From contig OZ316899.1 of assembly GCA_973895155.1 (NCBI GenBank), positions 8,497,241 through 8,561,240 of the forward strand: a DNA stretch of 64,000 bases. The letters run 5' to 3'. The position numbers and the translations under genes were made by a program. The notes under the pieces are model-generated. The model was not told where the DNA came from, did no database searches, and was given only the letters and a program-made list of their open reading frames with translations. Below are positions 4,513-35,652 of this stretch, one piece after another. The first letter of the stretch is position 1; the number at the start of each line of letters is the position of its first letter. This DNA is from Marsupella aquatica. Taxonomy: Eukaryota; Plantae; Marchantiophyta.

Positions 4513-6513
4513 GGGACATATTTATATGCACTTGGGTCCAGCCTAGACATTTGTTCATGTTATATTTGATTTGTTCATGTTTGGTGATATAAAAAAAATT
4601 ATTGCCTATATTTATATTTGTCATTCACTTTTGAATGAGTCATACTCATGACATATGTATTGTATTGTTTTATTGTGATCACTTGTGAATTTTACATGCA
4701 ACTTTCTATCTAACCTTTGTTGCTCAATATAACTTTATTTCCTACTTATTCCATAATTTTCATTGTCACCCTCATGTTTCCCTCCTCCGTGGTACGTCTG
4801 TCCCTCCTCCTCCCTTCCTCTTTCTCCTCCCTCCTTCCTCTTCCATTGTACTCCCTCCTTTTCCATCTTTCATTGTACCTCCCTCCATCCTCCCTTCCTC
4901 TTCCCTCCTGCCCCATCCATATATTGGACCATCCACCCTCTTCATTAATTGTCTCACCTCACAATAATCTTAATTTTTAGTTTGCGAACAATTTGCGAAG
5001 CTCACAAAATCTCACCGAACTCGCAATTTCTATGAAGCTTCTCGTTTCTCAATATTTTCATACTATACTATTTGCAAACTTAATTGTGATGCAAAATCAA
5101 TCACAAATTTCAAATTCTCACCGTTTCGCAAATCTTCCATCCTCCGACATTCTTAAACTTGTCAAACAACTACTATCGCAAAACATTTTCAATCCAACCT
5201 TCTTCGCAAATATTTACATCAATTAGTTTTGGAGTCGGCGAGCGATTTTGGCATCTTCAGAAGGCGCCTTTCCATTCGGCGCGTTTCGGCAAAACTTGCA
5301 AAATCACTTACTTCACAACGTATTAGCGATATAATGCGCTTCAAGTATTATCTTTGCGATAGGGATAGAATCGCAAATTGCGATGCGGGTTGATTCACAA
5401 ATTATGCCAAGCGCCGCCCATCGGAAATACAAGAGCGTCGACAAAAATACCTTCGCAAAAGTGTCAAATATGTTTGTAGTGCCAGCGAATAAAAATGAGT
5501 CATGGCAATGTGACTGAATTGGGGTAAGACGGGAAGATCTACAAAGCTCATCCACTCATTGGATACTATAAGGTGGGAGGTGAAGTAGGGATTGAAGATC
5601 ACACACATCTCATTCCTCTCCGTATCGTGCCATCTTGCCATTTGGAGAAAGGTAACCAGACGAGGAAGGGTATACTTCCCATAGTTGGCTTGGATCTCCC
5701 TTGTCGCCCAAGACTTCATAATTACCTCCACTAAATCAAAAACTTTCCTATGTAATGCTAAACTATAGAACTAGTGAAGTCTCCATGCTGGGCAGTCGGG
5801 ATGCGTGGTGTTTGCATCCGCCATTAGCACTATGTAATGAGGGTGGCCAGTGTGCTCTCTATCCAGTTTGGATAGCAAGATTTGCGTGACTCTGATGTTG
5901 GCCCTCCCTCTTAATCTAAAGTATAAGTCTTTGGGTTGGGTGAACCCTATAGCTCCTGACCACTCAAAGAATGGCAGCATAAACCTGATCCGGACCAAGA
6001 TGTCATACCATATCCACTCACAATCGTCTAGGCAAATGGCCCTCTTGCTAATCCCTGCTGTAGCTAAAATAAGACAAAGGGTTTCTAAACCCATAGCTTC
6101 ATCAACCTCGATAGCATGCATTCCGGGATGCTATCTTCTGTCCCATGAATATTCTCCACAAGTTTATGCTCACCTTCTTAAGTTGTTCCAGCTTCCTCTT
6201 GTGCACCGGATCTGCTAGTGCCTCCTTCAATAATTTAGCCATCGTGGCAGCTTTGTCTTGCAAGCTCTGTACTTCTAGATCCTAGACCTTGTAAGTGTCC
6301 TTTGGGATCCAAACCACCTTACTGCATTGCTGGATGAGCTCCTTAGTAGCTACATCTTGCAGCCATCTAGTCCTCTCCCTCTCTTCTTTCTTCTTCTTTT
6401 TCTAACGCAACAACGTATGTCTGCTTCTCCTCTAATTGTCCTTGTAGCTCACAATTGGTTTTCCTCACTTATTGGAGCTTCTTTTCCCACTCTAAGGCCC
6501 CCAATCTGGCTTA

Positions 6514-9634: not shown

Positions 9635-11506
9635 AGTCGCAAAATGCGACTACCTTAACACTTAGCTCCGGCGTCACTAACTCTGACGCCAAGCTCCATT
9701 ATGGTCCAGGCCCAGATAGGCCATCCGGGGAGGACTTAGCATGGGGAGACTTGTGGGCAATGAGACATGGCACTAGCGAAGGGGCAAAAAGCCAAGCTGG
9801 TGATACACATTAAGGACTTAGGCTAGCCGAGAGCTGGTCGGGTCAAGGGGAAAAGGGGCCGGGCTCAAGGTCAACCGTCCGGACCCCTGGACGTACTTTG
9901 AGTTCTGAGGACTTGAGTGTGAGTGCCTCTTGGGCCCAAGGTCAATGGAGTTGACGCCATGGGCAACGGACGCTTGGGGCACGAGTTATGGCCCGATCTG
10001 GGTTTGGCCGATTGGGGATCCCAAGTGGCTATGAGACCTGAGGGCCTAGTCATGAGCACTGGGTCGGCCCGATCACAATGGGCTAAGGCACTCCGCTTAC
10101 GGACTCCTAACGAGAAAGTTATGGGCGTTGCCAGTTGGTGGCGCGCCCACTGTGCTCGATAGGATCCGGGTTGGAGGCCAAAAGTTTAGGGACCAAAGTT
10201 GATCTGGGGGTGGCAGGTCTCCAAAAGCATATATGAGGGGAGTGGTGTTTCCCTGGGGGCTAAGGGTGAGCCGAAGTTGTGAGCCGCGGCAGTAGCGACA
10301 CTAAGGGAAAATGCCAAACAGAAACGGTGATATCTTCCCAACGGGAAGTCCGTTGGAGGACTTATTGGGTGCATTGGAAAGCTCTCAAGGAGGGATACAT
10401 ACTCCTGAGCTCATTTGGGTCTGGGGTGCCATGGGTTCTCAAGGTTTGCGGGTCTTAGCCCGCCCGCTTGCCAAATCCTACCGAACAACAGCCAAGCCAC
10501 GTTCAATCTCCCAAGGGAGCTTGCGTTGGGGAGGCAAGGCCAAGTAGGCATGGAGGTTGAGTTCCAAGGGTGATCGGCCCTAGACCATCAGTGGGGAAAA
10601 CCGGGAGTTGGCTGCTAGAGTCGGGGTCATTCTGGTCCCAACGTGTTGGGACAAGCTTTAGGACAAGTTACGCTATTTGGGCCATGAGTATGTCCTTGGG
10701 TCAGGGCGGTCAGTTGGTGATGGATAGGTACAAGGGGGAACCCAGGCCGCGCCCAAGGAAGGAGCTATTTTGGACGAACAGTGGGCGTGGGGTCTGGTTC
10801 TGGCTTATGGCATCGGGAGGACCTATCGCTGACTTATTTTCCAATGTCTGTTGAGCTTGAGTTAGGATGCTAGAATTGGTGAGTTCTAGATCCTGAAGGG
10901 TTACTTACCAAGGTGCTTGGTTGCTTGTGTAGACAATGAGGACCATTGAGTAGCGGTCGTGTTGGAGAGGGGTATTTACAAACGACAGGAAACAGGAAAC
11001 AGTAACAGGAAACAGTAACAGGAAACAGTTACTGGTAACAGGAAAGTGGGTGGTAATTTTTTTGGATTTTTTTTTTTGGATTTTTTTTTGAACATTTTTT
11101 TGGGGGGAATTTTTTTTGTTTTGGTTTGTCATCATCATATTGCTAGCGCCCGAAGCTAACAATAGCAGCGCTTGGCGCTCGCAAAAAAACCCATGATTTT
11201 AATTATTTTGAAAAATAAGACTTTAAATGGTACATTTTTAGATCGTGTTTTTTATTGGTAATAGTAAAATTTCCTGGTAATAGGAAACTTTTTGCTGGTA
11301 CCAGTAATCCTGTTTTCCTGTTTCCTATCTTGGTGGTGATGCCCGTGTTGGAGAGCAAGTGCGGCTTCATATGGGAGAGGCCGCTAGCGGAGCAAGGCGA
11401 ACTAGGTTGCTTGCTCAAGGTATTCCGTGAAGGCGTTTGGGCACCAGGGGCACTAAGGCATGAGTGTTGGGATTGGTGAGGGCACTAGGTGGCAAGGTCC
11501 ACCACT
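9635..11506 (+). repeat. 5' LTR of the chromovirus (contains a MITE insertion)
   Basis: Colinear direct repeat of 15435-16885 apart from the 10969-11344 insert and small indels; ends AGT...ACT. Confidence 0.92.
10969..11344. mobile_element. MITE-like element, copy 2, inserted in the 5' LTR
   Basis: Absent from the 3' LTR (empty site ATGTTGGAGAGCAAG). Duplicated target GTGTTGGAGA(G) on both sides. Ends GGGGTATTTAC...GATGCCC. Confidence 0.85.
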
Positions 11507-11508
11507 TG

Positions 11509-11520
11509 TGGTATCAGAGC
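11509..11520 (+). promoter_or_regulatory. Primer binding site (tRNA-iMet)
   Basis: TGGTATCAGAGC, 2 nt after the LTR end. Confidence 0.93.
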
Positions 11521-11558
11521 GATTGCTAGCATAGACACCGGGCCGGGGTTGTGCTAGG

Positions 11559-14500
11559 TTGGAATCCAAAAATCTTAACGGATTTTTGCGGGGACCTAGT
11601 GCTTCAACGGGCCCGGCGGGTCAACTGCGGGCAGATTTGGTTGCTGGGGACATGGCAAAAAACACTCAATCAAAGAGTGGCAAACAGGCTCCCCCCGCCA
11701 AGGGGAGAGCCCAAGTTCAAGAAGAACATAAGGGGGACGGGTCAACTTCCCTAGATAAATGTTACAAGCAGGACGACAAAGACGTGGCGGCCAAACCGTT
11801 GACCACCACAACGAACACATCAAGTGCAACGCGCCATTGACTTAAAGGGAAGGAGGTGGCCGATCCTTCAGAGGATGAGTCGGACGATGATGGCTCCGAC
11901 GCGGATGGAAGCGGCGACAGTGCAAAAGCTGAATTGGAGGAAGAGGGTCAGGACCTGGAGGAGGAACTGATCCCAACCTTGAGAGGGTTGGATGCGGAAC
12001 CAGAGGATGACATTGATCCGGATGTCATTGTGGATAATCTAACCAAGCAGAACCAAGGCAATGCGGGTGAGGCCTCAACCCCGAGAGGTCATGGTGCCCG
12101 CAAGATGTAGGGGGTGTCACCAAAATCCACAAAGGAACCTAAGGACAGGCGGCTTGCAAAGGAAAGACGGTTGGAGGACCGTCTGCATACAACCCGCAAG
12201 GGCCCAGCTGTTGATGACGGTTTGGGTCCGTTTACTCAAGACCAACAACTCATTTATGAGCACTTGGAACACAACAAGGGGGCCCAGATTAAGTACTTGC
12301 TTAGTCTGGGTAGTCAAAGTGCAACGCGTCCCAAGGGGGGAATGGTAGTTGGACGGAGTATGTTCCAAGTGAACCAGCTACCAACTCCTCCAACTTACGA
12401 TGGGGCCTATGAGCAAAGTGGACAAAAGTTCTTGAGTTGGCTCTCCACGATGGAGATTCATCTCCAAGCGTGCATTGAGCGTTCCACTTGGGCTACTGCA
12501 GCCGCTCCTTGCCTAAAGGACGATCCCTTGGAAGAAGTCGCAAGAGGACTCCTCCTTGCCGTTAACTTGGAAAAACCTGGTTGAGGGTCTCCGTGCTCAT
12601 GTCACCACTAAGTACCCGGAGCGGCACGCTCAGAAATGTGTAACAGAGATGAGTTTCCGGGGTGATATCCAAAAGTTCATCACGTATTACTAGAACCAGT
12701 TGGCGTGTATCCCGGTGGGACAGGAGACCCTACATACGCAGCTTCACAACTTTATAGTGAAGCTCCCACCGTTGCTCAGGGAAAAGTTGCAGGTAAAGCG
12801 TCACAAGTTTAAAATGATTTCTGACACCTTCGTCAAGGCCACTACGTTGGTGAATAACCGGTCGGCCTTGGCGAAGGTGGGTGGCAAGGGAACCGAGGGG
12901 GAAGCTGGGAAAGCAAAAGGTCCTGGGAATAAGCGTAAGCAACCTGAGGGGGCGGGGTCGGTGGTTTGCATCCCTAGCCCCAGAATGGAGAAGCCAAGCA
13001 AAACCAGAAGGCTAGCAACTTCAAGAAAGGAACCTCATTGGCGCATAAAGCAAAGAAGCAGGCGCTCACAGAGCAAAGGCGGGCTGAAGGTTTGTGCTAC
13101 ACATGTGGCGCCATGGGCCATTAAAGTAAGGACTGCCCCTCAAAGGGAGGCAAGTTGAGCGAAGATGGAGGGCACAAGGGCATTAAGGTAAGTATTGCTC
13201 TAATCAAACCCTTAGTAATTGACGAGGTCCCTATAGGGATGTTCTTGTCGGAGAGAAGGGGTTGTTGCGAGAGAAGATACCTAAAGTTAAGACAAGGGAT
13301 CCTGAAAAGCTGATTTTTGTGAATGTCACTTCTAACGGTAATCTGGGTGTTGCTTTGGTGGATACAGGCGCGACGTGCAAGAGTTGCTACAACCATTAGT
13401 GTGCAAGTTTGCCAACAACATGAAAGGGATAGTGTCGAGAGTGGTACATAGACTTCAAGTAGAGGTCATAGGCAAGCAGCAAAATTTTGTTAGTCAAGAG
13501 ATATTCTACGTTCTAGACGGTCTAGTCGTAAACTTCATATTGTCGGTAGGTTATCTCAGAAAGCACAAAGTTACCTTGAAATTGGGGGATGAGGTGCTCC
13601 ATTTTCCCAATAAGGGCGGTGAGCCCACCGTTCTACACAAAATTACCAAAAGTAAAGAAAGATTTCTCAAAGTAAGTAAAGTGTCGTGGTTGTCTCCGTG
13701 TGTATCGGCAAAGCAATGGTGGAAAGACTTCAAGGGTGGACATGAATGTTTCTTCTTTCATCTCCACCCAGTTAAGGAGGTTGCTTTGTAGCCAAAGGTT
13801 AAGTCAGCTAAGGTCGGGCCCGATTGCGGTCAAATTCCTGAAATTTTAGAGGAATTCAATGACGTGCTCTCGCAGAAGCTACCTAATGGTTTACCCCCAC
13901 GGAGAGAAGTGGATCACCAAGTTGAGTTGGAGCTAGGTTTGGCTCCTCAAGCTAAAGCTCCTTATTGTCTGAACCTGAACAAACAAATGATGTTGAAGAA
14001 CGCCTTGGAAGAGTTGATCGACCAAGGGTTCATTTGTCCTAGTAAGAGTCCTTATGGGGCGCCCGCGTTGTTTGTGTCCAAAAAGGATGGTACTTTGAGA
14101 TTGTGCGCAGATTATTGGGCCCTCAATAAACAAATGGTAAAGAATAAGTACCCGTTACCTCATATGGGTGACCTCTTTGATTGCCTCTCTGGGGCTAAGA
14201 AGTTTTCTAAGCTGGACTTGCGGTCTGGGTATTACCAAATCTGCATGGCTAAGGGAGACGAGTATAAGACCGCGATGTGCACAAGGTTCGGATCCTACAA
14301 ATTTTTGGTTATGCCGTTCGGGTTGTGTAATGCAACCGCAACATTCATGAAGATGATGAATACCATCTTTCGTGACTTGTTGGACCAAGGAGTAGTCGTC
14401 TTTATTGACGACATCCTAATCTACTCAAAAATGTTGGAGGAACTTGAGTAGTTGCTTAGAGAAGTGTTCTCTTGCCTTCGTAAGGCTCGTCTCTTTGCTA

Positions 14501-14998
14501 AACCTGGCAAGTGCGAGTTTGCGATGAACGAGATTCAGTTCCTTGGCCATACCTTTACCCTGGAGGGGATTACGCCTAGTCAAGACCCTAAACATAAGTA
14601 GGAAGCTGGCTCCTAGATATCCTGGGCCCTATCGCATCATACGATGGGCCTACAAGGATAATCCGGTTTTGGGGGTGTTGGAGACACCCAAGGAAATGGG
14701 CGTGGGCAAAAGCTACCATGTTAGTCAACTCAAGAAATTTGTCAAAGATGATAATCCCAACCGGGATCCGGTCTTGCGTCCGGACGCCATGCTGGTGGAG
14801 GACGCGGAGGAGTTTGAAGTGGAGGCAATTCTAGACCACCGTTACAAACGCAAGTTGGGAAGGCAAATCTTAGAGTATTTGGTGAAGTGGACTGGCTATG
14901 ATCAGGCCGAGAGTACTTGGGAACCGAAAGAAAATTTGGGTACTGCCTCAGAGATCCTTGGAAGCTATTGTAAGCAAAGTAGTCTACCGCCGTTGTGA
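11559..14998 (+). pseudogene. Chromovirus gag-pol remnants: gag, protease, RT, integrase GPY/F tail and chromodomain
   Basis: Protease ALVDTGAT near 13350. [42 protein letters not shown]. After FLGH the sequence jumps near 14575 to KLAPRYPGPY and chromodomain EFEVEAILDHR...YLVKWTGY...STWEP. Confidence 0.92.
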
Positions 14999-15434
14999 AC
15001 TGGTGCACGCAATTGTAGCTACCTTTGTGAGTTGTACCCTAGTTTCACTCCTCTCGGCCTCTTAAGGATAAAGTCAGATTGCGTTGGTGCTAGAGGTTGT
15101 TGAGCGGCCGATTTGCTTTTTGTGAGTGGAAGTTGATGGTGCCCGCCTTACATCTGTGGGCGGGTTGGTTCGAACCAAAGGGGAGTACCCCAAGGGGAGG
15201 ACAATGGGTCCAACGAGTTTGGAGTTAGCTTACCCGCTTGGACTGGCATCCTACTTGGATAAGTGGGATAGGTTGGATTTCCTAAGTTTGGAATGCGCAC
15301 ACCAACCTGGTTTGCATTAGCCTTATGGGCAAACCATTTGTTACCTCATAAAGTTTTAAGACCCAAAGTAGTCTAGGCGTGCTGGAACGTTTACTGAGGT
15401 CACGCGGACGTGACCATTTTTAAGGGGGGGCGCA

Positions 15435-16885
15435 AGTCGCGGAACGCAACTACCTTAACTATTAGCTCCGGCGTTGCTGACTCCAACGCCGAGCTCCCTT
15501 ATGGTCCAGGCCCGGATAAGGCATCCGGGGAGGACTTAGCATGGGGAGACTTGTCGGCAATGAGATGTGGCACTAGCCAAGGGGCAAAGAGTCAAGCTGG
15601 TGATACACATTAAGGACTTAGGCTAGCCGAGAGCTGGTCGGGTCAAGGGGAAAAGGGGTCGGGCTCAAGGTTGACCGTCCGGACCCCTGAACGGACTTTG
15701 AGTTCTGAGGACTTGAGTGTGAGCTCCTCTTGGGCCCAAGGCCAATGGAGTTGATGCCATGGGCAACGGACGCTTGGGGTGCGAGTTATGGCCCAATCCG
15801 GGTTAGGCCGATTGGGGACCCCAAGCGACTATGAGACCTGAGGGCCTAGGCCCAATCACAATGGGCTAAGGCACTCCACTTGTGGACGCCTAACGAGAAA
15901 GTTATGGGCGTTGACAGTTGGTGGCGAGCCCACTGTGCTCGATAGGATCCGGGTTGGAGGCCAAAAGTTTAGGGACCAAAGTTGGTCCGGGGGTGGAAGG
16001 TCCCCAAAAGCATATATGAGGGTGAGCCGAAGTCGTGAGCCACGGCCGTCGCGATACTAAGGGAAAACGTCAAACAGAAACAACAATATCTTCCCAATAG
16101 GAAGTCCGTTGGAGGATTTATTGGGTGAGTTGGAAAGCTCTCGAGGTGAGCTACATCCTCTTGAGATCAGCTAGGTCTGGGGGTGCCATGGGTTCTTGAG
16201 GTTTGTGGGTGTTAGCCCGCCCGCTTGCCAAATCCTGCTGAATAGTAGCCAAGCCACGTTCAATCTCCCAAGGGAGCTTGCGTTGGGGAGGCAAGGCCAA
16301 GTAGGCGTGGAGGTTGAGTTCCAAGGGTGATCAGCCCTAGACCATCAGTGGGGCAAACCAGGAGTTGGTTGCTAGAGTTGGGGCCATTCTGGTCCCGGCG
16401 TGTTGGGACAAGCTTGGGACAAGCTTTAGGATAAGCTACACTATTTGGGCCATGAGTATGTCCTGGTGTTAGGGCGGTCAGTTGGTGATGGATAGGTACA
16501 AGGGGGAACCCGGGCCGCCCAAGGAAGGAGTTGTTCTGGACAAACAGTGGGCGTGTGTTTTGGTTCCGGCTTATGGCATCGGGAGGACCTATCGCTGACC
16601 TATTTACCAATGTCTGTTGAACTTGAGTAGGATGCTAGACTTGGTGAGTTCTAGATCCTAAAGGGTTACTTACCAAGGCGCTTGGTTGCTTGTGCAGACA
16701 ATGAGGACCATTGAGTAACGATCATGTTGGAGAGCAAGTGCGGCTTTGTATGGGAGGGGCCGGTAGCGGTGCAAGGGGCACTAGGTTGCTTGCTTGAGGT
16801 ATTCTGTGGAGGCGTTTGGGCACCAGGGGCACTAAGGTGTGAGTGTTGGGATTGGTGAGGGTGTTGGGTGGCAAGGTCCATCACT
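15435..16885 (+). repeat. 3' LTR of the chromovirus
   Basis: Follows PPT TAAGGGGGGG (15421-15430); direct repeat of the 5' LTR. Confidence 0.92.
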
Positions 16886-17815
16886 TCCTGCCACCTCCAT
16901 TTTTGCTCAATGAAATTAGTAATGTAAATGAGGAGTGAGTGGACAGTTGTGTCATGATCCAGCGTATGCTTTTGTTGGGAGGGACGGACGATGAGTGCTC
17001 GAATGCTTTGTGAGGCAAATCTAGCCCGCCTTTCTGCGTTAAGCTCAAAGGATTTTCTACTTTGGTTTGTGAATGTCCAGAAGGGCGAGATAGTCCCTAT
17101 CTCGTAAGCGTGAGGCATCTTGGTCAAGCGCCCTATTGATGATGGCCCTGATCATGGTGTTATTCTGGGGGCTACTTATGAATACCCTCTACTCATGACT
17201 TAGTAAAGGCACGGCACCTGACGTGGTTGTGTATGCAGCTCCCTCTTGTTACGACCGGCGGCAATACCTTAAGTACCCATTATGGCTATCCCAACTGTAT
17301 TAAGATAATAATTGTGCTTTACTAAAATGACAAAAAGATTGGGGTCCGCACAATGTGTTAGTGAGATGTACAGTACTTTATCCTATGAGATTTGTTCTTG
17401 ATTTTTTGGATGAGTCGGTGTCTATCGACCCAATTGGCAATCTGGAGATGCTCGATTGAGCCAATTGCTAGTGCAATTTAGTAGACCTGTGGGAGGTCCT
17501 AAATCTGCACCATTGTCTTTGGCAACATTCAGTAGTTTGATTACTGGATCTGATGATTTGATTGAAGGTAACGCACATGCAGCAGATGTTCCGACAATGG
17601 AGGAGCCATGTAAAGAACACATGATGGGTGTATTACCTATTGATACTATTGTGGCACCAATATAGGGTACTAGAGAGGCCTTGCAACAAAATGCGGCCCA
17701 ATTGATACATGATGCCTGGTGTCATGCTTTCACACCGGAGTCAGGAGCACAACAACCTTTTGTAGATGGATTGGTGACCCTTTCACCATTTGATACCACT
17801 CCTATTGCATGGTAA

Positions 17816-18740
17816 TATCCAGAGGAGGATATTTGTTTGTTGGATCTATTTGGCACGTGGTTACTTGTACGTGGAAAATGATGAGATAACACGGAGGATC
17901 TCACTACGTCATGTCGTGATGTTGGTGGAACGTTATCCACAGTTGTTGCCAGTGGATGTCGTTCATGGTTATCGGCATGCACTGCCTGCTGATATTTCAT
18001 TATTGGGGGTAGATCATTCGGATTGTGTTGGCCCCATTGATTTGGTGATTGCGGGTTGGCCATGTCAGGGTCAATCTTGGGCTGGAATTGGACATGGATT
18101 TCATGATCCAAGATCTGCATTATTTTGGAAGATGTTAAGTGTGTTGCGCCATCTCCATATGCATCATACACATTCTCTTACATATGTTTTGGAGAATGTG
18201 CCATTATTGGGTGATGATCATCATCAAATTGTTGCTAGTGTTCATCAAGTTCGATCTTGGATTGGACCTGCTATGTTATTGGATGTTGCACGTGTGGGTT
18301 CTTGTGCACATTGCCCATGATTGTGGTGGACTAATTTGTTACCATGTGAGGTCTTGAAGCGAGCATTTGATGGTGTACCTCGCTCAACAACCTTTGTGGT
18401 GGATGGTATTTTGGATCAAGGGCGTCATGCACAAAGTGTTACCCAATCTAATCAACCCCCATTGGCAGTGGTGAATGTAATTGGGCGTCTGCGTTGTGCA
18501 TTACCCATTTTTGTGAGTCATTCTGCTTCATACGCATTTTGAGCAGATTGCCCTGGACTTGTGTGGGATACAGCTCTACAAAGACTAGTAGAGCCTACCG
18601 CTAATGATAGAGAGCGGGCTATGGGATTTTTGACCAGCACCACGGCAGTGACCTTGGTGTTGGAGCATTCATGTCGTCAGATCCTTGGTCAAGCCATGGA
18701 TTTGAATTGCTTGACTTGGATTATCAGCTTGGGATTAGCT
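17816..18740 (+). pseudogene. C5-cytosine DNA methyltransferase domain (DNMT3/DRM-like) within Gypsy pol
   Basis: Motif I remnant EEDICLLDLFG (other frame, deletion follows); motif IV IDLVIAGWPCQG; DPRSALF; motif VI YVLENV; motif VIII region AHCP*LWWTN; motifs IX-X RERAMGF...RQILGQAMD. Confidence 0.9.
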
Positions 18741-18944
18741 GAAAAATTGCAAATGCGCACTTCTGATGTTACAGGTCGTCCATTGGTGAGCTTGAGGCCT
18801 ACCAAGACAGTAGCAGCCATAGCTGGGGGCAAGCAGACAATTGATGGAGCTATGGCAAGATTGGCTAAGGCATAACAGATTGTTGAGCAAAGGAGGTTGC
18901 TCAAACCATTGATAAATAGCAACGAGGGACTGACTCTTCCATCC

Positions 18945-19135
18945 ACAGGCCACGGCTTGTGCCCTCTTCAACTCCAAAGGAAGACGTCATAGTTTTGATT
19001 GAGAGTCACAGTCCATAGCCTGTGACCTTCAACTCCCAAGGAAGATGTCATAGTTACTTTGATGGATAGTCACAGCCCACAGCTTGTGGCCTCTTCAACT
19101 CCAAAGGAAGACATCACAACTTTGATGGAGAGTTG
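18945..19135 (+). repeat. Three tandem ~60-65 bp repeats between methyltransferase and RT
   Basis: CTTCAACTCC(A/C)AAGGAAGA(C/T)(G/A)TCA recurs three times. Confidence 0.8.
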
Positions 19136-19229
19136 AGAACCACAGATTGGTCCTAAGTTGACCGGGAGGGAGAGATGTTGCAGGTATCAATTCTTGAAGA
19201 GTTATTGAAATTGTTTTGCATTTAGTATG

Positions 19230-20243
19230 AAGGATTTGGGGACATTGAAGGGCCTTGGTATTCAAATCAAATTGGCTAGTGATGCGCCAATCTTTCAACG
19301 ACCGTGTTGATATAGTGACATGGAGAGGGCTTTGATCCAGAGTAGAACTCAAGATTTGTTGGAGGCTGGTTTGGTGGAGATCTCATATGGGGAGTATGCA
19401 TCTGCCATAGTGATGCCAGCCAAGAAGGATGTGCATGACAATTATATAGATAGGCAAATGTGTGGTGATTATCAACCTAAGTATTAATTGTCAGACAAAA
19501 TCTAATTGATATGCCATGCCCACACCGGAGGAGATCTTTGATGTTGTAGGGCATGCAAAGATATTTAGTTTGTTGGACCTCAAGGCGGGGTACCATCAAT
19601 TGCCAATTAGGCATTCTGATAGATCCAAGACAACATCTTGGGGAATTGATTCTTATGGCAAAGATGGTTTGTATCAGTGGTTGTTCTTACCATTTGGATT
19701 GAAGAATGCACCAACTGAATTCCAAAGAGTCATGGATCAAATTCTTGTAGGTTTAGATTTTGTGAGATGTTACATTGATGATATTTTTTGGTCTATTCTT
19801 CTACTATGGAAGAACATCAAAGACACTTGTAGATTATGTTGGAGAGATTGAGAGAGTTATACAAACCATGAAGAGAGGATTGCGTAAGTATGGCTTGCAG
19901 GTTGGTCATTTGGGAGATTGGGATCTCCAGCTACCGTTTCAGTCGACAAGCATCACTTGCATCCTTCTCACCTTATTTCTTGCTCTATGGTAGAGAGCCA
20001 GATTTTCCAATGGCTATTAATCATGATGTGGCAATTGTTGTGGATTTGGATGATCCCGATGTTTGGGTCAAGGTGTATTCAGAAAGGGCATTAGTTTTTG
20101 AGAGAGTCATGCCCATGGCCTTTGACAACCTTGCCATTGCCCAACATCTTGATACTTTAAGGTATGCCACTATTTGTGGAGGAGGTTATCGTGCAAGGAT
20201 TCAACGATTTCATCCTGGAGATTTTGTTTATTGTAGCAAATAG
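19230..20243 (+). pseudogene. Gypsy RT and integrase C-terminal remnants
   Basis: LDLKAGYHQL, LPFGLKNAPTEFQRVMD, YIDDI. Jump near 19848 to ERVIQTMKRGL...SPYFLLYGREP, so RNase H and most of integrase are missing. Confidence 0.88.
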
Positions 20244-20424
20244 CACCAACAACACTTGATGTGACCGCAGGTCGGAAAATCTTACGTGTGCATGAAGTGT
20301 TGTCTTCTGGTGTCCTAATGTTGGAAGGACGTGATGGTATGGTTTGGAAGGATCATGTGCGCAATTGTGCACCATGTCATCTTTCAAACATTGATGGTAC
20401 TGTAGATCCAAGTTTGGCTCATGT

Positions 20425-20581
20425 TCATGCCAGCTTGAAGTGTATGTTGTGTGGATCTGCTCAAGGAGCAACCACTATGTTGATTTGTGATAAGTGTTCT
20501 AGAGGATGGCACATGTCGTGTTTGACATCACCATTAGAGTTGATTCCTAGTGGATCATGGTTGTGTTCTCAATGTTGGTGA
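20425..20581 (+). CDS. PHD finger at the integrase C-terminus
   Basis: CMLC...MLICDKCSRGWHMSCL...IPSGSWLCSQC = C4HC3 pattern. Confidence 0.9.
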
Positions 20582-21705
20582 AACTGACTAGTTACCATTG
20601 GTGTTCTCATGGAAGGTACATAGATTGCAGGAAGGTGATTGATGGGGCTCACTTCCACCCGGCCTCTTGATCTCCACACTTAAAAAGGTGTATATCAACC
20701 TTGTAGAACTTATGGCTAGTTAGAGTTAGGGGACCTCACTCCCAACTAGGGGGGCGATTGTGGGTTTTGGACATGTGTGGATAGGAGTTTCATTTGTACT
20801 CCATTCTCTTATGTTTGTGATATTGATTGTGACTATGTTTAGATATGTGTGACAAGCAATGTATGTGGTGTAGCGATGTTTAAGCGCACAACAACATACA
20901 CAAAAGATATGTCAAGCCCCTGCCCATTTAGTAGCACTTTACAAGAAAAGCCTAAGGCCATCCAAACTTGAAACACATGGTACCTTTCTTGAATCTGTTG
21001 AGGTCTTCCTGGAGATTCACTTAGTAATGCAGTCCCCTACCGTTGATGACCCATATTTCTGCATAGTAGATAGTAGGACATCCCACACTATCCTGCAAAA
21101 TAGAAAATATTTTAGGGAGATAACCTCTTCCAATAGGAGAGTAACAACTATTATGGGACAACACCAGATTGAGGAAGGACATGGTCCCGCCACAGTAATC
21201 CTCCCAAAAGGCAGAGCTATACATATAAAATCTGCAATATATGGCCCAAAAGCCACGAGGAACCTCCTCAGCTTTTAAGACATACGGGCTAACAACCTGC
21301 ACATAGACACAAATATCATCAACTCCCAAAAGGTGATCACATCATTGCTAAAACCCACACCGAAAATGATATAAGAGAAACCCTATCTGCCTACCCATTG
21401 GGATACTATGCCACAAAAACTTGCTATCATGCAGTATCACATTCTAACTCCATCACAAACTTATGGCATAGGAGACTGGGCCACCCAAGCACCAGTATGT
21501 TCCATAAAATCATTTGAGACACAAAGGGAATACCAAATATAGTGCATCCAAGGTCCTTGAAGGACCCATGCATAGCATCTTCGCAAGGCAAGGTGACCAC
21601 CAAGCCATCTCCATCAACAATAGAAAGAAACATCCCAAAATTCTTGGAGAGGCTTGATGCTGATGTTTGCAACCCCATAGATCCCCCTAGTGGGCCATTC
21701 CAATT

Positions 21706-24700
21706 TGTGACGCCACCGGTACGGCGGTTAATGAGTGATTCGGTCTAACTGCGCTTAGCACGTGCATTAGGAGTGTCTTAGGCCGCTATTATTAGCATAA
21801 CGACAGTATTTAGGTAATCATTATGGGTAGGACATCATTAGGCAATAAGGGGGAATTCAGGTTCGGACTGGCGGCGGGTCGCTATTCGCACACCCGGGTT
21901 ACGAGCGTGGAGGGGCCCCTCCCTCGGGTCCGTATAACGTACTTAAGAAGCGGCCACTGACACGCGCTGACTCAGACCGGCGGAGTGGCCGGTACACCAC
22001 AAGCGTGAGCGGTTCAGCCTATGGGCGTCGAGGAGACGTCGGGGGACCGACAAGCCCTCAAGGTATAAAAGGGGAGCCAACCCTTTGTAGTGCACCAGTC
22101 CATCAGTCCACGCGCCAGCTTCGACCCCAGCTCTCTCGTTCGCTCTAAGTTGCCACTACTATCTCCTCTGAATGTCGCACACGATCCTCTCCAGCTCGGC
22201 CATTCGATTCTGGACGCAGTTCCTATCTACCGGAAGGCACTTGGCCGACTCATTGAAACACGCCAACCCGCGCCGATACGAAATCGAATGCGAGTACGAG
22301 AGAGCCATCCGCCTAGCAGGACGACACCACTACATCCTTAACTTTAACTACCCGTCTCAGAGCGAGCTTTACCGACCAGCATAAGTATCTGGGTACTTCT
22401 TCAACGGAGACAAATATATCGGTTTCTGGGAAGCATTGCTTCGGCTTCCAGACGAGGTCTTCAATATCCCGGGTACGATCGACTTGCAACGACATCACTT
22501 CGACCACATCCCTGCTCAGGTTCGGGCTATCATCAACAGCGAGTCCAACACTACCCATTCGACAAGGTCGTCTACACTTGCTTTGGAGAACTTCTACCAG
22601 CATCTACAGAGCTTCATGGGAACTCGGCCATCAACCAACATGACCAACTCAGTCGAACCCATACCCGTACCTATACCCGTACCCATGCAACCTCAGGCTC
22701 AGCTTCAGCTTTAGCCTCAGCCGCAGCCTAGCCAAACCCCACCACCGATCGCCCAGCCAGCACAAGTACGCTCCGTCATCAACGCCGTGGATCTTAGCGA
22801 TGACGACGAGGCTACCCCACCCTTGACCAGGCGGCCCAGAGGAACAAGCGCTCAGGGGGCCGACACTATATCGTCCCCACCCCCTGCTCTGACCCCAGGA
22901 GCGGCCCCGACAGACAACATGGTGACCATGGTCGCCCCGGGCCCGTTACTAACGGCAGTGGCACTACCCAGGCCCGATCGGGAGGATGGGGAAGTGTCAC
23001 CTTCCCCGAGCCAGTCACGGGGGAAGAAGAGGAAGGAATCCACCACTACATCCGGGTTACCGTTGGCCACGGTAGCCGTAGCCAAGGTGACGATGCACCG
23101 CATGGGGGAAAATGCTCACAAAAACATCCTCCATCCCAAGCATGCGGTGTACCTGAAGACTCAGGGATTCGAGCACCTCGCCTCCCTCCCCTGGAACACT
23201 TGCAGGTACTATGGGGAGGACATGACGGAGTTAATCAGGAATTATGATGACGCGCGTCAACATACTCGGCTACGGGGAAGGAGTATGTCCCTCACGGAAG
23301 AACGGCTCAGGATGATCTTCGGGTTACCCGAAGATGACCATCGAGTCGAATCACGGGCTCCCGGGGGCAAGGGAGCCAAGTACCAATCTTCAAGTTTTCC
23401 CTCAGAGGGAGCAGTGGACAACGGGTTCGTGATGAAGACCTGCCTCATCCCCGAGATAGCTGAGCGACTGGAGTTCCAGAGGTACGCCCTCCACATGATG
23501 GAACCCCGGGGGGAGATCTCCGCCGCCCAAGTTATCCAGGTCGAGAACTATCGACCTAGGAAGTGGGCGTCGTACTTCGCTAAGAAATTCCATGAAGAGA
23601 TGGAGCGGCGAAGGAAGACGCTGTACATTGGCGGGAAGGCGTATTTCGCTAGCCACATCGAGATCATTCTTGAGTGGTACGCCCGGTTTGATCGACGAAC
23701 CCTTCCCCGTGTCAACGTTACAAAGCTGGTCCCAACTAGGTGGGTTTTCCCGGCCTTGGAGAGACGGCCCCAACCCGAGGCCCGAAGTCCAGCGGACACG
23801 CCAGCTTCACCCACCCCACCTCCACAAGTAGCTATAGTCGTAACCGAGGAGGTACCGCATGGGTTGGTTGTCGCAACCATTGATGCGACCCAACAAGCCG
23901 AGCTAAGTACAGAAGTTGGTACGGCGGAGGTCTTACCCGAGCCCGGGTCTCCCAAAGACCCACCGGTGGCTATTCCGGAGAACAAGACATTGCTGCAGGA
24001 GGACACTCCAGCCCCTTCCAACGTTACGTCCCCAGGGCTGGACGTCACTGCCCCGGCCCCCGCGCGTGTTGACGTCTGCCTGTGCCCAACTCCGGACAGG
24101 CACAACCTGGACCACCCGGAACTCTTCGTACCGGGTACATTTCTGAACGGGCTTCTGGGAGATTTCTCTCATCAAATTTCCCGGGATACCGGGGAGTTCA
24201 TGGCCCGGAAGGTAGCCTGTTTCTTCAATCAGGAATTGGTTGCCGCAGTAAAGGTAGGTCGGGCCCAATCAGAGGCCCTTCAGAGGATAGAGCGGTACCG
24301 GGTGGAGTCCATGTACCTAAAGAATGAAGTTGCGGCTCAAGAGGCTGAGCTTCTGCAACTACGACCCAAGGTTGCAGCCGCCGATGAGTTGTTAGCAAAG
24401 GCGCACGCTCTTACCGCCCTAGCCGAACAGGCCAAAGCTAGGAACGAGGCCGAGATTACACGACTCCGGAACCAGATTGACAGTTTGAAGAATCAAACCG
24501 TCACCTGGCAGAAAGACCTGGAGGAGACCGAGGAACGGGCCCAGCGAGACACGGCGGAGATAGCCATGCTGCAGGCCGAGGTGGCGCGGCTCCAAACCAA
24601 GGCCGAGAAGCAGGACCAGCTAGCGGGTAAACTGACGAGCGACGCCCAGCAGCTGGAGGAGGCATGTCAGGAGGTAGCAGGGAGACGGACGCGGCGAGGT

Positions 24701-25717
24701 GAGAGAACGAATCTCTGCTGGACCAGGTCCAGCTCCTCAAGGCGGACAATGACAGGCTTCGAAGGCAGCAGGATGGCCGCTCCCATTCGGGCGGCTCTGG
24801 CAAGCGTGCCAGGCATTAGCAGCGGAGTAGGAATAGATTAGGATTAGGACTGGCTTAGTCAGGCTCTTGGGACAGGCACCTGCCTTAGGTACAGCAGCGC
24901 TGCCATGCTGTCCAGCCTGCGTAGATTAGGATCTTCTAATAAGACACAACCGTTTTCCGGCCTGACTGTCAGCTTAGTTAGGACCTTAGTCAGCAAATCT
25001 TCGGCGAGAGGACACCCCGTCCCTCGTCCCTTAGTATTTAGTGCACCCCTCGGTAGAGGCGGGGGGGGGGGTTTAGTTGCAGAGTTGGACGTCCGCGGTA
25101 TGTGCGGGGAGTCCCGACCTCTGGGAATGAAAGAGTACCAAGGGGAGGGGGTAGGACTAAGCTCGCCGGGCGAGTGCGGAGCCGAGCTCCGTTGTAGTGT
25201 GCACCCTCGGCCTTGAACCTGTTCATTCCGGGGCTGTCGGGTCAACTAAGTGTACGCATATGTTCCCTTTGTAGAAAAATCCTTTCCCATCATTTTCCTT
25301 TGTGTAAATTGAGATTGTATGCATGTGCGCGTGTATGTGTGTGGGTTTCTCGTATATGGGTGGCAGCGCCAGGCCGAACGCACTACCCGAGACATGCACA
25401 GGGTGCAGCCTACGGGTAAGTGGTTGCCAGCACGGGTTGAGGACCAATATCATCGAATCTGGATCGAAGGCGGACAGCACGAAGGCTTAGAAGCCCTTAA
25501 GCCGGGGTCGATCCTGCTATCGACTAAGGTACGTTCCGGTGGCGGAACACAAACCATACCTAGGAGGTGTCCGTATTTAGTAGTATGCGCACTTAGCGCT
25601 AGTTTACGAGAATAAGGTGCATTACGTGCTTCCCTTCCTGCCCGAACCCTCAAATTTACGAGGGATGTGCCCGTCTAAGCTGAAGTCTGAGTTAAGGCCG
25701 CAGCCGACGACGTGACA
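21706..25717 (+). repeat. 5' LTR (4012 bp)
   Basis: Near-identical to 29686-33591 from position 21820 on; TATA box TATAAAA near 22064; same ends as the solo LTR. Confidence 0.93.
22172..24819 (+). pseudogene. LTR-encoded ~880-aa protein, 5' LTR copy
   Basis: ORFs at 22172, 22436 and 22787 share one frame, broken by stops at 22382 and 22712 and a 1-bp deletion near 24680; all three sites are intact in the 3' LTR copy. Confidence 0.85.
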
Positions 25718-25729
25718 TAGCCTTTGTTT

Positions 25730-25747
25730 TGGCGCTAGATGGAGGGG
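25730..25747 (+). promoter_or_regulatory. Primer binding site (tRNA-Asn-like)
   Basis: TGGCGCTAGATGGAGGGG, one mismatch to the TGGCGCTAGAAGGAGGG PBS type I recall for plant Tat elements. Confidence 0.75.
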
Positions 25748-25840
25748 GCACTCTACATATCGTAGAGGGGAGACATGTGCGTATTCACCTAGGCAGGATA
25801 CATCAGGACGTAGTACTAACCATCACATTTATATGAGTAA

Positions 25841-27463
25841 ATGCCCGTCACTCATTCTCAAGCAGCTTACTTGAGGAGATTGACCAGCGAACGAGAAAGT
25901 GCAACCACGACAAGTTCCGATTCTTCGGGCTCGGAGGACTCGCAATCGCCCCGACGTATGAACATACCCCCGGGACCTTCGGGGTCCGGTTCGACCGGTC
26001 CTGCTGCGGTTCCTCCGCCACCACCACCACCACCGCCACCTCCACCACCACCTATGGCAGCCGCTTCATTGATGGCCCGCGCTGCTCAAGCTCCTCCACA
26101 AATATCGCAACGATCGCAATTTCATTATCGACCTTTCAAGGGGCGTCATGGGGACGATCCGGATGAATGGTTGGATGAGTTTGAAGCCACTGCTAAAGCT
26201 AATGGGGAAGACGCCATTAAGCTAACCGTCCTCCCGGGGGTGATGCGGGGAGAAGCTCGTCCATGGTACAACTCGTTGCCACCCGGGACTACATGGGCAC
26301 AATTCCAAGCTCCATTGCTGCAGGAGTTTCGTGCCATTGGATCAGAACAACGTTCTCTATTAAAGATTGGCCAGCTTCGCATGGGAAAGAAGGAGTCCCT
26401 GCGGAAGTTCATTCAGAAGTTTCAGAAACTTGCGGCCAAGATCTGGCCCAGGCCGGGAGACGCGCTCCAGCTTACATGCTTCCTTCATGGTTTGCCCACG
26501 AATATGCAATTATGGGTACGCCAGAATAATCCAATTTCAATGCAGGCGGCCATAGCGTGCGCTGAAACTTACCGGGAGTCCACCTATAACTCCTGGCGGA
26601 GCCAGCGAGCACGCCGCAAGAAGGGTAAGTACGAGACCTTCAGTGACAGTGACTCCGAATCGGACGACGAGAGGAAGAAGAAATGCAAGAAGAAGAAGAA
26701 ACATCATTCGACCTCGTCCAGCTCTGAGACGGAATCCAGTTCGGATTCAGCTTCAAGCACCGGATCCTCTACCTCCAGTTCATCAGGAAGTGACTCGGAG
26801 GGCGGAAGCCGGAGCAAAAAGAAGAAGAGACGAGTGAAGAAGGAGGGGAAGATCAAACCCCGGGCGCGAAGAACAATACCAGATCCAAAGGCTACCGAAG
26901 CAGACAAGCTGAACGAAATCACGGATCGCCTCAAAGCACTGTCAGTACATCTTGCGGAAAATCCGGTGGAGAAGAAGAAGCCATCTGAGATTCGAGCCCA
27001 TGCGTGGTGTTCAAAGTGCTTCCAATCCGGCCATGTGGTGCAGGAATGCCCAAGGTGGAAGAACCGAGTTCACCAAGTAGAGCTGGATGATGTTGACAAC
27101 CCGGGTCCCGAATCGGAGTCCACGGAGTATTTCTTTGAGGACCCTCTTGATTCCGTGTACCAGATTTCAACGATAGGTCCGCGTAATTTAGCGGGTAGAA
27201 CTGCATACCCCTACCCAAACAATGGCCGGAGTTTCCAGGTTATCAGTAACCCGAGCATCCCTCCTAAGCCAGGGATTTGGCGATCCCCGGTTTGTTATAA
27301 CTGTGAAAAGCCAGGACACTTTGCGAGGGAATGCACCGAACCAAGACGTCAGGGAGATGGCCGAGGCACACCACTATGTCAAGTCTGCAAAATGGAGGCT
27401 CATTCCACGGCCAACTGTCCGTTGGTAATCGCTGCTCGAACGAGCACAGCTAGACCGGCCTAG
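25841..27463 (+). CDS. gag (retrotransposon gag domain, Ser/Lys-rich tract, three CCHC-type knuckles)
   Basis: DPDEWLDEFE, GEARPWY, QLRMGKKESLRKFIQKF, FLHGLP; CSKCFQSGHVVQEC, CYNCEKPGHFAREC, CQVCKMEAHSTANC. Confidence 0.92.
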   Translation: MPVTHSQAAYLRRLTSERESATTTSSDSSGSEDSQSPRRMNIPPGPSGSGSTGPAAVPPPPPPPPPPPPPPMAAASLMARAAQAPPQISQRSQFHYRPFKGRHGDDPDEWLDEFEATAKANGEDAIKLTVLPGVMRGEARPWYNSLPPGTTWAQFQAPLLQEFRAIGSEQRSLLKIGQLRMGKKESLRKFIQKFQKLAAKIWPRPGDALQLTCFLHGLPTNMQLWVRQNNPISMQAAIACAETYRESTYNSWRSQRARRKKGKYETFSDSDSESDDERKKKCKKKKKHHSTSSSSETESSSDSASSTGSSTSSSSGSDSEGGSRSKKKKRRVKKEGKIKPRARRTIPDPKATEADKLNEITDRLKALSVHLAENPVEKKKPSEIRAHAWCSKCFQSGHVVQECPRWKNRVHQVELDDVDNPGPESESTEYFFEDPLDSVYQISTIGPRNLAGRTAYPYPNNGRSFQVISNPSIPPKPGIWRSPVCYNCEKPGHFARECTEPRRQGDGRGTPLCQVCKMEAHSTANCPLVIAARTSTARPA

Positions 27464-27496
27464 GCTGGACCGGCCACAAGCGATGCAGTCGTCCAA

Positions 27497-29685
27497 ATGA
27501 TTGTTGTAGAATGGCAAGATGACAACACCGAGTGGGTGAATCTGGTGGACGTGGCGGAACACCCTAATCCATCTGACGAGGCTGAGTGCTATCGTGTGTC
27601 AACAAGAGCTGAACGGAAGGAAGAGAAGCAGGAGGAGAAACGCAGGAAAAAGCAAGATACTACTCCGGTGCAGCCAGCGATAGATATACCCCCGAAGAAG
27701 GACGATGACTACCGACGGGACGACCCGAAGCTATTTTTCCCTCGCATCGAAGAATTGGTAAAGAAATAGCTGGAGGCTTATGAAGCTCAGGAATACCAGA
27801 AGGCAATCGATAAGGACATCAAAGCAGCCGAGACAGCCCGGCAACAGGAGCAAGAAAAGCAAGATAAACAAGAGGAAGCCAAGCAGCAGCCGAAGGAAGA
27901 AACGAAGGAGGACTATGATATTAAGGAGGACGTGAAGAGTTGCCCGGTTACAGCAACGGTGGGGCAACTGCTGCAGAACAACCCATAGTACAGACGGCAA
28001 CTAAGGGAGTTGCTCATGGGTCGCCGAAGGAGGAGACTACCCCGAGTTGGGATCGCGGACTGCAACATGATATGCGAGGACCTTGGAGCGCCGGACATCT
28101 CGATCAAAATTAATAATTGTACCATCAAGATGGTTCTTGTAGACGGAGGAGCGGGAGTCAACATCATGACTGAAGAAACGTATCAACCCACAACCCAAGC
28201 TATCAGATTAGCAAACGGGGCAAGGGTCCTCCCATTAGGCACGCTCACACGAGTGCTCACTCTGGTGGGAGGGGTGGAGTTCTATCTCAACTTCCTAGTT
28301 ATGAGGCCGGTTCATCCCTCCTCTTACCCGGTTCTTCTGGGCAAGCCGTGGCTGTACGGTGGCCGCGTAGTCACGGATTGGGGAAAGAAGGAGCTACGGT
28401 TCGGGGAACCCACCGTACGGGTATCATGGGCAATGGACGATTATCAGGGAGAAACCCCACAAGGACCCGAGGAATATGATTCGGAGACCTCGGAGGAAGA
28501 GGAACTCAATATGATTGAACTCATCTCGTCCCTGTCCGAGGAAGATGTCTTCGGAGTTGAAGCAACCCGCGAAACACATCTCCTAAATTACCCGAGGGCT
28601 GCCATTGAGTCCACCCCAAGCACATCTACTGCCGGGGATGAGGAAACGCACAAACAACTCGTCGAGACGGAGGACAAGGCTCCAAGTAAGCAGGGAGCCG
28701 AGACTGCTTCTACCGTTGCAGAGCCTCGTGACCACGAACCAGTCCAACAACCGCCCGAGGCCAAAAACTCAAGACCGAGACATAAGAAACGAGTCTCATG
28801 GGATCCGTCCATTCCGCAATTGGAGGAAGTAACTCCAATCCCGAGACCAATCCCGGTTCCACCCATGTACGGAGGAGTTCGGTTAGCTGAGCTTGATGCG
28901 AGCCTGGACCCGAGCCTGCAAAACCAGGTTGAAGTCATCAGGAAGGAGCACTACCGGAAGTACACCATTGGGATGGACAAATCTTTTAACCTGGGCCACG
29001 CTCTGACAGGGGAGGCTGAAAAATCCATCCAAGCTTTGCTCAAGGAATGTGAAGATGTGTTTGCATGGAGTCATCATGATTTAACAGGCGTCTCCCCCAA
29101 GTTGGGAGAACACACGATCGATCTGAACCTAGGAACCCATGCGGTACGGCAGCGACAACGTCGCATGAACCCGAGGTACTCCATCTTAGTGAAGGAGGAA
29201 ATTGATCGTCTCCTCGCCGCCGATATCATCTACCCGGTAATGGCCAGCGACTGGGTCTCTCCCATTGTCATTGTACCAAAGAAGGGAGGTACGGATGGAA
29301 AACCTAAGATTCGTATCTGTCAGGACTACCGTAAGCTTAACGACGCAACCCGAAAAGACCATTTATCATTACCATTCACGGATATGGTTCTAGATATGGT
29401 CGCCCGAAATGAAATCTATACATTTCTTGACGGGTATTCAGGTTATAACCAAATCTGGATTCGCCTCGCGGATCAGCTCAAAACAACTTTCACTATGGAG
29501 TGGGGGACTTTCGCATTTCGGAGGATGCCTTTCGGTCTGTGTAACGCCCCGGCCATGTTTCAACGCCTTATGATGAATATCTTCCAGGATTTCCTACGGG
29601 AATTTCTGGAGATATTTATCGATGACTTTGCCATCTTCGGAACCGTTGCCATGCACCCCGAACACCTAAGACGAACGTTGCAACG
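27497..29685 (+). pseudogene. pol: aspartic protease and truncated RT
   Basis: VLVDGGAGVNIM, VLLGKPWL; [47 protein letters not shown]; cut at 29685. Confidence 0.93.
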
Positions 29686-35354: not shown

Positions 35355-35652
35355 AAAGTGTATTATTATTTAATTTATGTACATTTGGGCAATGAAAAAT
35401 ATATTTTTGGGCTTGGAAAAGTGTATATTTGGCCAATAAAGAGTGTACATTTGGGCAATGAAAAGTGTAAATTTGAACATCAAAATATGTACATTTGGCT
35501 TTAAAAGTGTACATTTGGCCTAGAAAGTATACATTTGAGTGAAAAATACATACATTCGACTTAAAAAGTGTACATTTAAGTGTATTTGGTCTAGGAAGTG
35601 TAACTTTTAGTGCAACAAAGTGTACATTTGGCCTAAAAAGTGTACATTTTCC
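35355..35652 (+). repeat. Left subterminal array of AAGTGTACATTT(G)
   Basis: About a dozen degenerate copies at ~22-bp spacing. Confidence 0.85.

Follow-up and report, generated by a model that had tools for sequence, protein, structure and literature searches.

The closest described relative of the element examined here is KnitGypsy-Dnmt3 of Klebsormidium nitens, which has DIRS-like repeats and a Ka/Ks under 0.2, and whose enzyme gave no activity in yeast (de Mendoza et al. 2018, PMC5890265; this and the other publications are cited from their accessible portions). That paper left open what a retrotransposon gains from a DNA methyltransferase (DNMT) of its own, and activity of a Gypsy enzyme was not shown in it (PMC5890265). 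Our subject is a 64,000-nucleotide stretch of DNA from the liverwort Marsupella aquatica (contig OZ316899.1, positions 8,497,241 to 8,561,240; hereafter the window), in which positions 17353 to 20893 of the + strand are a decayed Ty3/Gypsy copy of an abundant family with relatives in liverworts and peat moss. As in KnitGypsy-Dnmt3, an intronless, non-permuted Dnmt3-type domain under purifying selection sits in a Gypsy element that combines Gypsy domains with DIRS-like split repeats; however, the present family occurs in bryophyte-type elements, and its DNMT lies ahead of a conserved stop codon, whereas the wording of the paper places that of KnitGypsy-Dnmt3 in the Pol frame (PMC5890265).

Other known systems resemble the family in part. 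SymbioDIRS-Dnmt3 likewise has a retroelement-borne Dnmt3 and A-coding-B-A-B repeats, and its enzyme methylates CG de novo in yeast, but it relies on a tyrosine recombinase, whereas a DDE integrase (PF00665), a polypurine tract (PPT) and target duplications are found here (PMC5890265). The EpiLTRs/DAM-LTRs, with Cymbomonas as one host, are long terminal repeat (LTR) elements that also join a DNA methyltransferase to a chromatin reader; they differ in carrying DAM, a DNMT4-related enzyme and a chromodomain, and the preprint calls them distinct from streptophyte Gypsy-DNMT3 (bioRxiv 10.64898/2026.05.21.726589). Tf1/Sushi and the plant Tcn1 chromoviruses share with the family a predicted self-priming that replaces the tRNA primer and a histone reader that ends the integrase, although that reader is a chromodomain rather than a PHD finger, the LTRs are ordinary and there is no DNMT (PMC6317226). 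In the two-LTR circles of PFV and HIV-1, integrase cuts a palindromic LTR-LTR junction into processed ends; there the palindrome is a true end-to-end junction and the cut a side route (PMC1180852, PMC4372172), whereas here it is an inherited sequence within the LTR, and all integrated copies that were examined have their ends marked by it.

KnitGypsy-Dnmt3 is cited for "streptophytes" without detail in PMC12344493 and bioRxiv 10.64898/2026.05.21.726589, and a 2019 opinion paper described methylase-coding transposons as absent from land plants "such as tracheophytes" (PMC6338049). Neither a PHD finger nor Marchantia is mentioned in the text of PMC5890265 or the three of its supplements that were searched, and the accessible portions of that paper make no mention of a self-primer, an attachment palindrome or a 4-bp target site duplication for KnitGypsy-Dnmt3. 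The family is also not described in the accessible portions of PMC10952607, PMC9516144, PMC12885004, PMC11244446 and bioRxiv 10.1101/2021.11.30.470311. A literature search that had subscription journals mostly outside its scope found no split repeats with an integrase, no Selgy or Phygy element with a PHD finger, and no publication that deals with copies in bryophytes or with the stop, the self-primer or the internal palindrome. In the literature searched, the conserved stop that puts the DNMT on the Gag side, the integrase-fused PHD, the likely self-primer and the A...B-A-B ends with 4-bp duplications were not found in print.

A DNMT3-like enzyme in a Gypsy lineage

Three-frame translation and a Pfam scan of the window found a protease tail, a C5 methyltransferase, a reverse transcriptase (RT), an integrase tail, a C4HC3 PHD finger and a PPT, all on the + strand and in the order that an earlier note on this DNA had proposed; the two profile checks suggested there, PF00145 and PF00628, both returned matches (Table 1). 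In the DNMT, identity to the closest protein found, P0001, is 71%, and from the protease tail on P0001 and the window are collinear. Among 98 confirmed metagenome stretches, 80 were kept as related loci (L numbers). Ten of the 80 hold Gag, zinc knuckles (ZK), protease (PR), DNMT, RT, RNase H (RH), integrase (IN) and PHD in this order, each in one contig, and DNMT is followed by RT in 54. The relatives with matches to PF00078, PF17917, PF17921 and PF00665 have the order PR-RT-RNase H-IN and a DDE integrase; no tyrosine recombinase family appeared in their Pfam scans, and the viral contigs searched had no match to the element.

The earlier expectation that the range of such elements extends to land plants is borne out by named relatives. 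Searches with the DNMT returned 20 proteins, nine of them named Marchantia polymorpha and one Sphagnum, and searches with the integrase tail and PHD returned 29, whose names include Marchantia, Calypogeia fissa and Sphagnum fallax. Two consecutive gene numbers, Mp8g15430 and Mp8g15440, correspond to Gag-PR-DNMT and to integrase tail-PHD, respectively. A search of the whole library yielded 269 representatives at E<=1e-30. There are two layouts, in which the DNMT follows either PR, ahead of RT, or RNase H, ahead of the integrase; the PHD is mostly the same. The after-RNase H group is large; P0057, P0067, P0235 and P0242 are among its members, and Cymbomonas and Haematococcus among its names. In P0067 a Tudor-like domain (PF21743) is added behind the PHD.

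In a FastTree tree of 131 DNMT domains, from which 15 near-duplicate or chimeric rows, domains shorter than 230 aa and rows of undeterminable layout were left out, a branch with support 100 separates the 40 before-RT rows from the rest. The named ones among the 40 are Marchantia, Closterium (six rows), K. nitens (KFL_013780020) and Mesostigma, and the window DNMT lies in a 12-row group with Marchantia (support 99). A bryophyte host is likely on this ground. The K. nitens row, P0123 (ZK-PR-DNMT), carries a long-branch warning; it falls within the before-RT group and is 31% identical to P0001 over 572 aa. Because the window DNMT groups with this protein, the family very probably belongs to the KnitGypsy-Dnmt3 lineage, here in land plants, and we infer that P0123 is one of the KnitGypsy-Dnmt3 copies of de Mendoza et al. 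2018. A single lineage is also compatible with the RT tree, a weak test that has only two outgroups, both of them window rows.

The family profile matches DNMT3A best (E=7.5e-27), followed by DRM-type enzymes (7e-18) and M.HhaI (5e-9), and a structural model of P0003 (pLDDT 89.6) finds its best fold matches in DNMT3A/B; ESM Atlas matches all scored <0.8 and serve as leads only. The motif order I, IV, VI, VIII, IX, X is non-permuted, unlike that of plant DRM, which is matched by part of the profile only. The element methyltransferase is DNMT3-like by profile and fold model, and methylating activity is predicted. A tree against DNMT3, DRM and charophyte enzymes had been proposed to place it: the profile favors DNMT3 over DRM, and the tree groups the enzyme with K. 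nitens but has no host DNMT3 root. All 131 aligned domains have the Glu, and 130 have the catalytic Cys; of the two motif VIII arginines, one is present in 129 domains and the other in 128. Between families, dN/dS of the DNMT is 0.12 to 0.21 in nine of 12 pairs, with dS near saturation, and the other three pairs are saturated; within the main family it is 0.42 to 0.69, which matches the decay expected after insertion. The DNMT is thus under purifying selection in this Gypsy lineage.

The stop before Pol and the PHD end of the integrase

Of the 54 loci with both DNMT and RT, 52 have an in-frame stop between the two; in the remaining two loci, the junction is deleted (L020) or was missed by the search pattern (L062). 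Counting all 57 loci with the stop, its contexts are TAG CAA (37), TAA CAA (15), TAG TAA (4) and TAG TAG (1). It is placed 14 to 20 codons upstream of the RT leader, and families whose synonymous sites are near saturation have it in common. Intact ORF1 proteins end 51 to 144 aa past the DNMT, and intact ORF2 proteins (P0246, P0272) start at the RT leader and contain neither PR nor DNMT; P0123 is marked partial and ends 12 aa past the DNMT. Naturally intact copies include P0274, P0206 and Marchantia Mp4g09160. In the loci with the stop, the DNMT lies in the Gag-PR frame and not in Pol. In the window, the TAG CAA at 18917 comes into register with the C terminus of P0001/P0205 after a local frame change near 18890, so the single polyprotein frame drawn in the earlier note does not hold; a continuous PR-DNMT-RT frame, which it had suggested looking for, does exist in P0064, P0202, P0203 and P0238 but is interrupted in the 52 loci.

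The conserved stop is likely a readthrough site into Pol, and readthrough there would supply the DNMT in Gag amounts. CAR-YYA is a readthrough motif, and L031, which belongs to a separate family, reads TAG CAA CCA in an otherwise almost open frame.

The PHD finger ends the integrase, not the DNMT, and stands at the integrase end in place of the chromodomain of Tcn1 chromoviruses. Its nearest solved relatives are DPF3, CHD4, ATXR5, KDM5B, PHF21A, AIRE and UHRF1. Readers of H3K4me3 have a cage Trp two positions before the His; in 74 of 77 PHD proteins, which were picked by pattern, this residue is Gly, so the PHD lacks the cage Trp of H3K4me3 readers. It is predicted to bind H3 unmethylated at K4, and its fusion to the integrase makes a role in guiding integration more likely than one in guiding methylation.

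Split end repeats and a proposed route of integration

The 5' ends of relatives start with repeat A (~340 bp), and the 3' ends read PPT-B-A-B in six loci (B is ~115 bp); in one locus B-A runs to the contig end, and in ten loci, at eight sites, B stands alone. A full LTR repeated at both ends is not the layout, and A...B-A-B or A...B corresponds to a permuted B+A LTR. The PPT exactly precedes the first B, the self-primer site exactly follows the first A, and no PPT precedes the last B; with a primer binding site (PBS) after the first A and a PPT before the first B, the ordinary LTR is thus B+A, and the integrated form is its circular permutation. A matching 4-bp target duplication is found in seven of the eight loci with both outer ends. 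None of the seven has a central CG, so there is no preference of the Phygy type, which was given as NCGN (PMC6317226).

Behind the first A, 11 nucleotides are complementary to a site at position 167-172 of A in 10 of 11 loci (11/11 nucleotides in four), and this target lies ~31 nucleotides downstream of a TATA box in A. The pairing is present in the fold of L068, and no tRNA primer site was seen. The complementarity suggests self-priming of the Tf1 kind.

The sequences of the outer ends, TGTCATG and CACGACA, recur at the inner B|A joint, where they lie 2 bp apart and form the palindrome CACGACA-GC-TGTCATG. A staggered cut after each CA of this palindrome would give two processed ends, and the A...B-A-B ends with their 4-bp duplications point to integration at the internal palindrome. 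At the last A|B joint, L052/L053 retain 9 nucleotides of the PBS, and L045 has filler together with a PPT-like remnant; an end-joined circle junction would leave such traces. L052 (12674-13570) and L053 represent a rearranged copy with an internal inversion, in which integrase-PHD is lost and the A tail with the 9 nucleotides of PBS is joined to B; this copy still has a matching CACA target duplication.

Copies of the form A-internal-B were considered as direct products of a one-LTR circle and rejected as such: the right flank and a TGTG duplication are common to L027, which has B only, and L080, which has B-A-B. Some B-only forms, at least, are therefore secondary and result from recombination or assembly collapse. 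B stood behind non-PPT sequence in 12 to 29 contigs per run, and a second B is suggested in the host's own family as well.

From these parts a mechanism can be proposed. Transcription would start ~31 nucleotides past the TATA box in repeat A, and the first 11 nucleotides of the transcript would pair with the 11 that follow A and serve as self-primer. Ribosomes would mostly stop at TAG-CAA and release Gag-ZK-PR-DNMT (~1250-1350 aa), and rare reading past the stop would yield RT-RH-IN-PHD (~1035-1056 aa). The packaged DNMT, present in Gag-like amounts, would then likely methylate cytosines of the new cDNA before integration. Priming at PBS and PPT would produce cDNA with a B+A LTR whose ends become joined, and a staggered integrase cut at the internal B|A palindrome would insert A-internal-B-A-B with a 4-bp duplication, which are the layout and duplication observed. 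The PHD, on an H3 tail unmethylated at K4, would bias integration away from active promoters. For the mechanism as a whole (Gag-frame DNMT, cDNA methylation, readthrough integrase-PHD and insertion by palindrome cut), we lean slightly in favor. More tentative, and on the doubtful side, is the broadest proposal, that of a green-plant-wide Gypsy lineage, alive into land plants, in which a leaky stop packs DNMT3 at coat-protein amounts so that cDNA integrates already methylated, in which the integrase PHD reads unmodified H3, and which combines self-priming with routine integration from end-joined cDNA opened at an inherited LTR palindrome.

Several observations weigh against these proposals. The counts over the 80 loci are not independent, since one family contributes most of them and several represent one and the same insertion. 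The full CAR-YYA motif is matched in L031 only; in the main family the sequence is CAA CCC and an in-frame ATG comes after it, where translation could re-initiate. P0064, P0202, P0203 and P0238 have PR-DNMT-RT in one frame (P0064 and P0238 without a stop there), and 77 distant proteins carry the DNMT after RNase H, inside Pol; across the lineage, then, Gag-level supply of the enzyme is not needed. The leader fold of L068 is overall not unusual (z -1.28), and the window's copy has B only, B-A-B being found in relatives. A two-LTR circle would hold two equal palindromes, so copies of the form A-B-A-internal-B are expected too, and none of the 23 loci with a 5' end shows this mirror product, which is unexplained. 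Finally, the Klebsormidium enzyme gave no methylation in yeast, a result that its authors call inconclusive (PMC5890265).

The yeast result also suits a reading that keeps the lineage and its DNMT but has the enzyme work on host chromatin, during integration or later (at the target site or on other copies), on element RNA, or only as a nucleic-acid-binding scaffold. Its catalytic residues are all kept, which fits any substrate, and RNA methylation and host benefit were both left open by the authors of the 2018 paper (PMC5890265). We think this reading unlikely, as the position in the Gag-PR frame ties the DNMT to the particle, its fold and sequence are nearest DNMT3 and not DNMT2, and related DIRS DNMT3 domains methylate CG in DNA (PMC5890265). 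The missing mirror copies, for their part, would be accounted for if the split repeats were copied via RNA as in DIRS models, with a transcript reaching into the last B, template switches giving a linear A-internal-B-A-B, and integrase trimming its ends without any circle cut; the 2018 paper likens the repeats to those of DIRS (PMC5890265). However, the PPT exactly before the first B and the self-primer site exactly after the first A define an ordinary B+A LTR, no PPT stands ahead of the last B, and the traces of PBS and PPT found where the last A meets B (two cases, one of them in a rearranged copy) point to end joining, which leaves copying via RNA somewhat unlikely. That the DNMT is a passenger, a piece of a host DNMT3 captured by or nested by chance in one dead element, would suit the heavily broken state of the window's copy and is close to inconceivable: the domain holds the same position in dozens of copies and in proteins of Marchantia, Sphagnum, Closterium, Klebsormidium and Mesostigma, is represented 269 times in the library search, is under purifying selection, and has no introns or target duplication of its own, which had been named as the marks of a separate insert. 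We retain cDNA methylation by a particle-borne DNMT, and integration at the internal palindrome, as the favored account.

The copy in the window and its surroundings

The window's copy is dead in several ways, as the earlier note had concluded. Upstream of 17353, the 5' repeat A, Gag, the zinc knuckles and the catalytic half of PR are gone, and a deletion of ~525 codons near 19853 leaves P0272 residues 245-769 (the RT end, RNase H and most of the integrase) without a match. The DNMT has two in-frame stops. Of the methyltransferase motifs listed earlier, the catalytic Cys of motif IV, ENV, IX and X could be located, but half of motif I is lost, a ~16-codon deletion and a frame change at 17854/17856 having taken the glycine loop, and both motif VIII arginines are gone, one replaced by Cys and the other by a stop.

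The element does not end at 20581, as first drawn, but runs on to 20893. At this position the depth drops, other public-run contigs go into unrelated flanks, and the junction into a Copia-type element is bridged by one contig each in X1 and X2 with 0 differences. No A-B follows, and this B-only right junction is real. As the right-hand repeat of the 4-bp target duplication one expects ACAT at 20894-20897, whose left-hand counterpart is no longer present. On the left, a TG..CA-bounded low-copy repeat adjoins the cut protease. It was rejected as the family's repeat A, as its summed depth is far below that of B and it keeps only 9 letters of the conserved A start; it is likely the solo LTR of another family, with no target duplication seen. 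A separate Gag N-terminal remnant on the - strand comes from the same DNMT-carrying family, and no 5' repeat was found with it.

A 4.3-kb stretch gave 1175 to 5122 contigs per run in four runs, most of them <99% alike; the family is therefore a highly repetitive one, both in the host and in a second organism, summed contig depth not being taken as copy number.

Table 1. Features of the window, with positions counted from its first nucleotide
Feature	Position	Strand	Basis or remark
Aspartic protease region, C-terminal tail	17353-17432	+	61% identity to P0001 residues 188-215; PF13650 at P0001 107-165
PR-DNMT linker, coding, with stops	17420-17830	+	58% identity to P0001 212-356
DNMT3-like C5 cytosine methyltransferase domain, non-permuted	17831-18743	+	PF00145 match 17778-18317, E=4.9e-9
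Motif I	17831-17854	+	
GWPCQ	18054-18068	+	
Catalytic Cys	18063-18065	+	
ENV	18192-18200	+	
Motif VIII	18306-18335	+	
Motif IX	18603-18629	+	
Motif X	18681-18701	+	
TAG CAA, probable end of Gag-PR-DNMT frame, likely readthrough site to Pol	18917-18922	+	Register with P0001/P0205 end
61-bp unit, three tandem copies, in leader ahead of RT	18944-19133	+	Tandem Repeats Finder score 220
RT leader and reverse transcriptase, frameshifted, deletion-cut	19137-19853	+	RVT_1 match 19510-19848, E=2.5e-14; YIDD 19771; 68-77% identity to P0272 8-244
Integrase C-terminal part, fused to RT over deletion	19850-20440	+	P0272 770-1030 matches 19814-20575
C4HC3 PHD finger ending integrase, stop after	20441-20581	+	PF00628 match 20237-20578, E=2.3e-10
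Polypurine tract	20748-20757	+	Aligns with L068 PPT; relatives have same tract before B
End repeat B, 136 bp, ending CACAACA (decayed right attachment end)	20758-20893	+	Aligns with B of L068
Target, Copia-type element entered in Gag/protease region	20894-21700	+	PF22936, PF13976; that family's contigs begin 20895
Gag N-terminal remnant, same family	33955-34445	-	69% identity to Marchantia P0008 1-71; 66% to P0274
TG..CA-bounded low-copy repeat	16950-17352		
Chromovirus-type element	9635-16890		RT and chromodomain
Young Gypsy element	21704-33591 and 58322-62258		Long repeat 21820-25717 vs 29686-33591
Open frame in long repeat of young Gypsy element	22715-24838		708 codons
Copia-type element	36240-43105	-	342-bp LTRs, 93.9% alike
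27-bp tandem array with open frames	49574-50403		
22-bp repeat family, two sites	35378-35649 and 57956-58066		

The chromovirus-type element upstream has long LTRs that are ~87% alike, the 5' one with an extra stretch near 10970-11345. It has suffered an internal deletion from RT to the integrase tail, and a tRNA-Met-like primer site was recognized by eye near 11510. The long repeat of the young Gypsy element is 97.6% alike over 3.9 kb, and has a third, inverted copy that is ~74% alike. The open frame within it, a protein gene carried in an LTR, has no Pfam matches beyond weak coiled-coil ones.

Several Marchantia and Sphagnum gene models of the "PHD-type" and "DNA methyltransferase" kinds are fragments of this element, whose ends will be drawn wrongly by LTR finders. 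The bryophyte copies narrow the claim that land plants lack methylase-coding transposons (PMC6338049), and whole-frame copies in Marchantia-related families bring the question of what the DNMT offers its element into a transformable land plant and genetic model. There, the stop codon predicts both the amount of the enzyme and its place of action. The finding of split repeats together with clean target duplications suggests that the DDE integrase works on a different substrate; if this is true, integration of end-joined cDNA, a route treated as marginal in retroviruses, would be the rule in this family.

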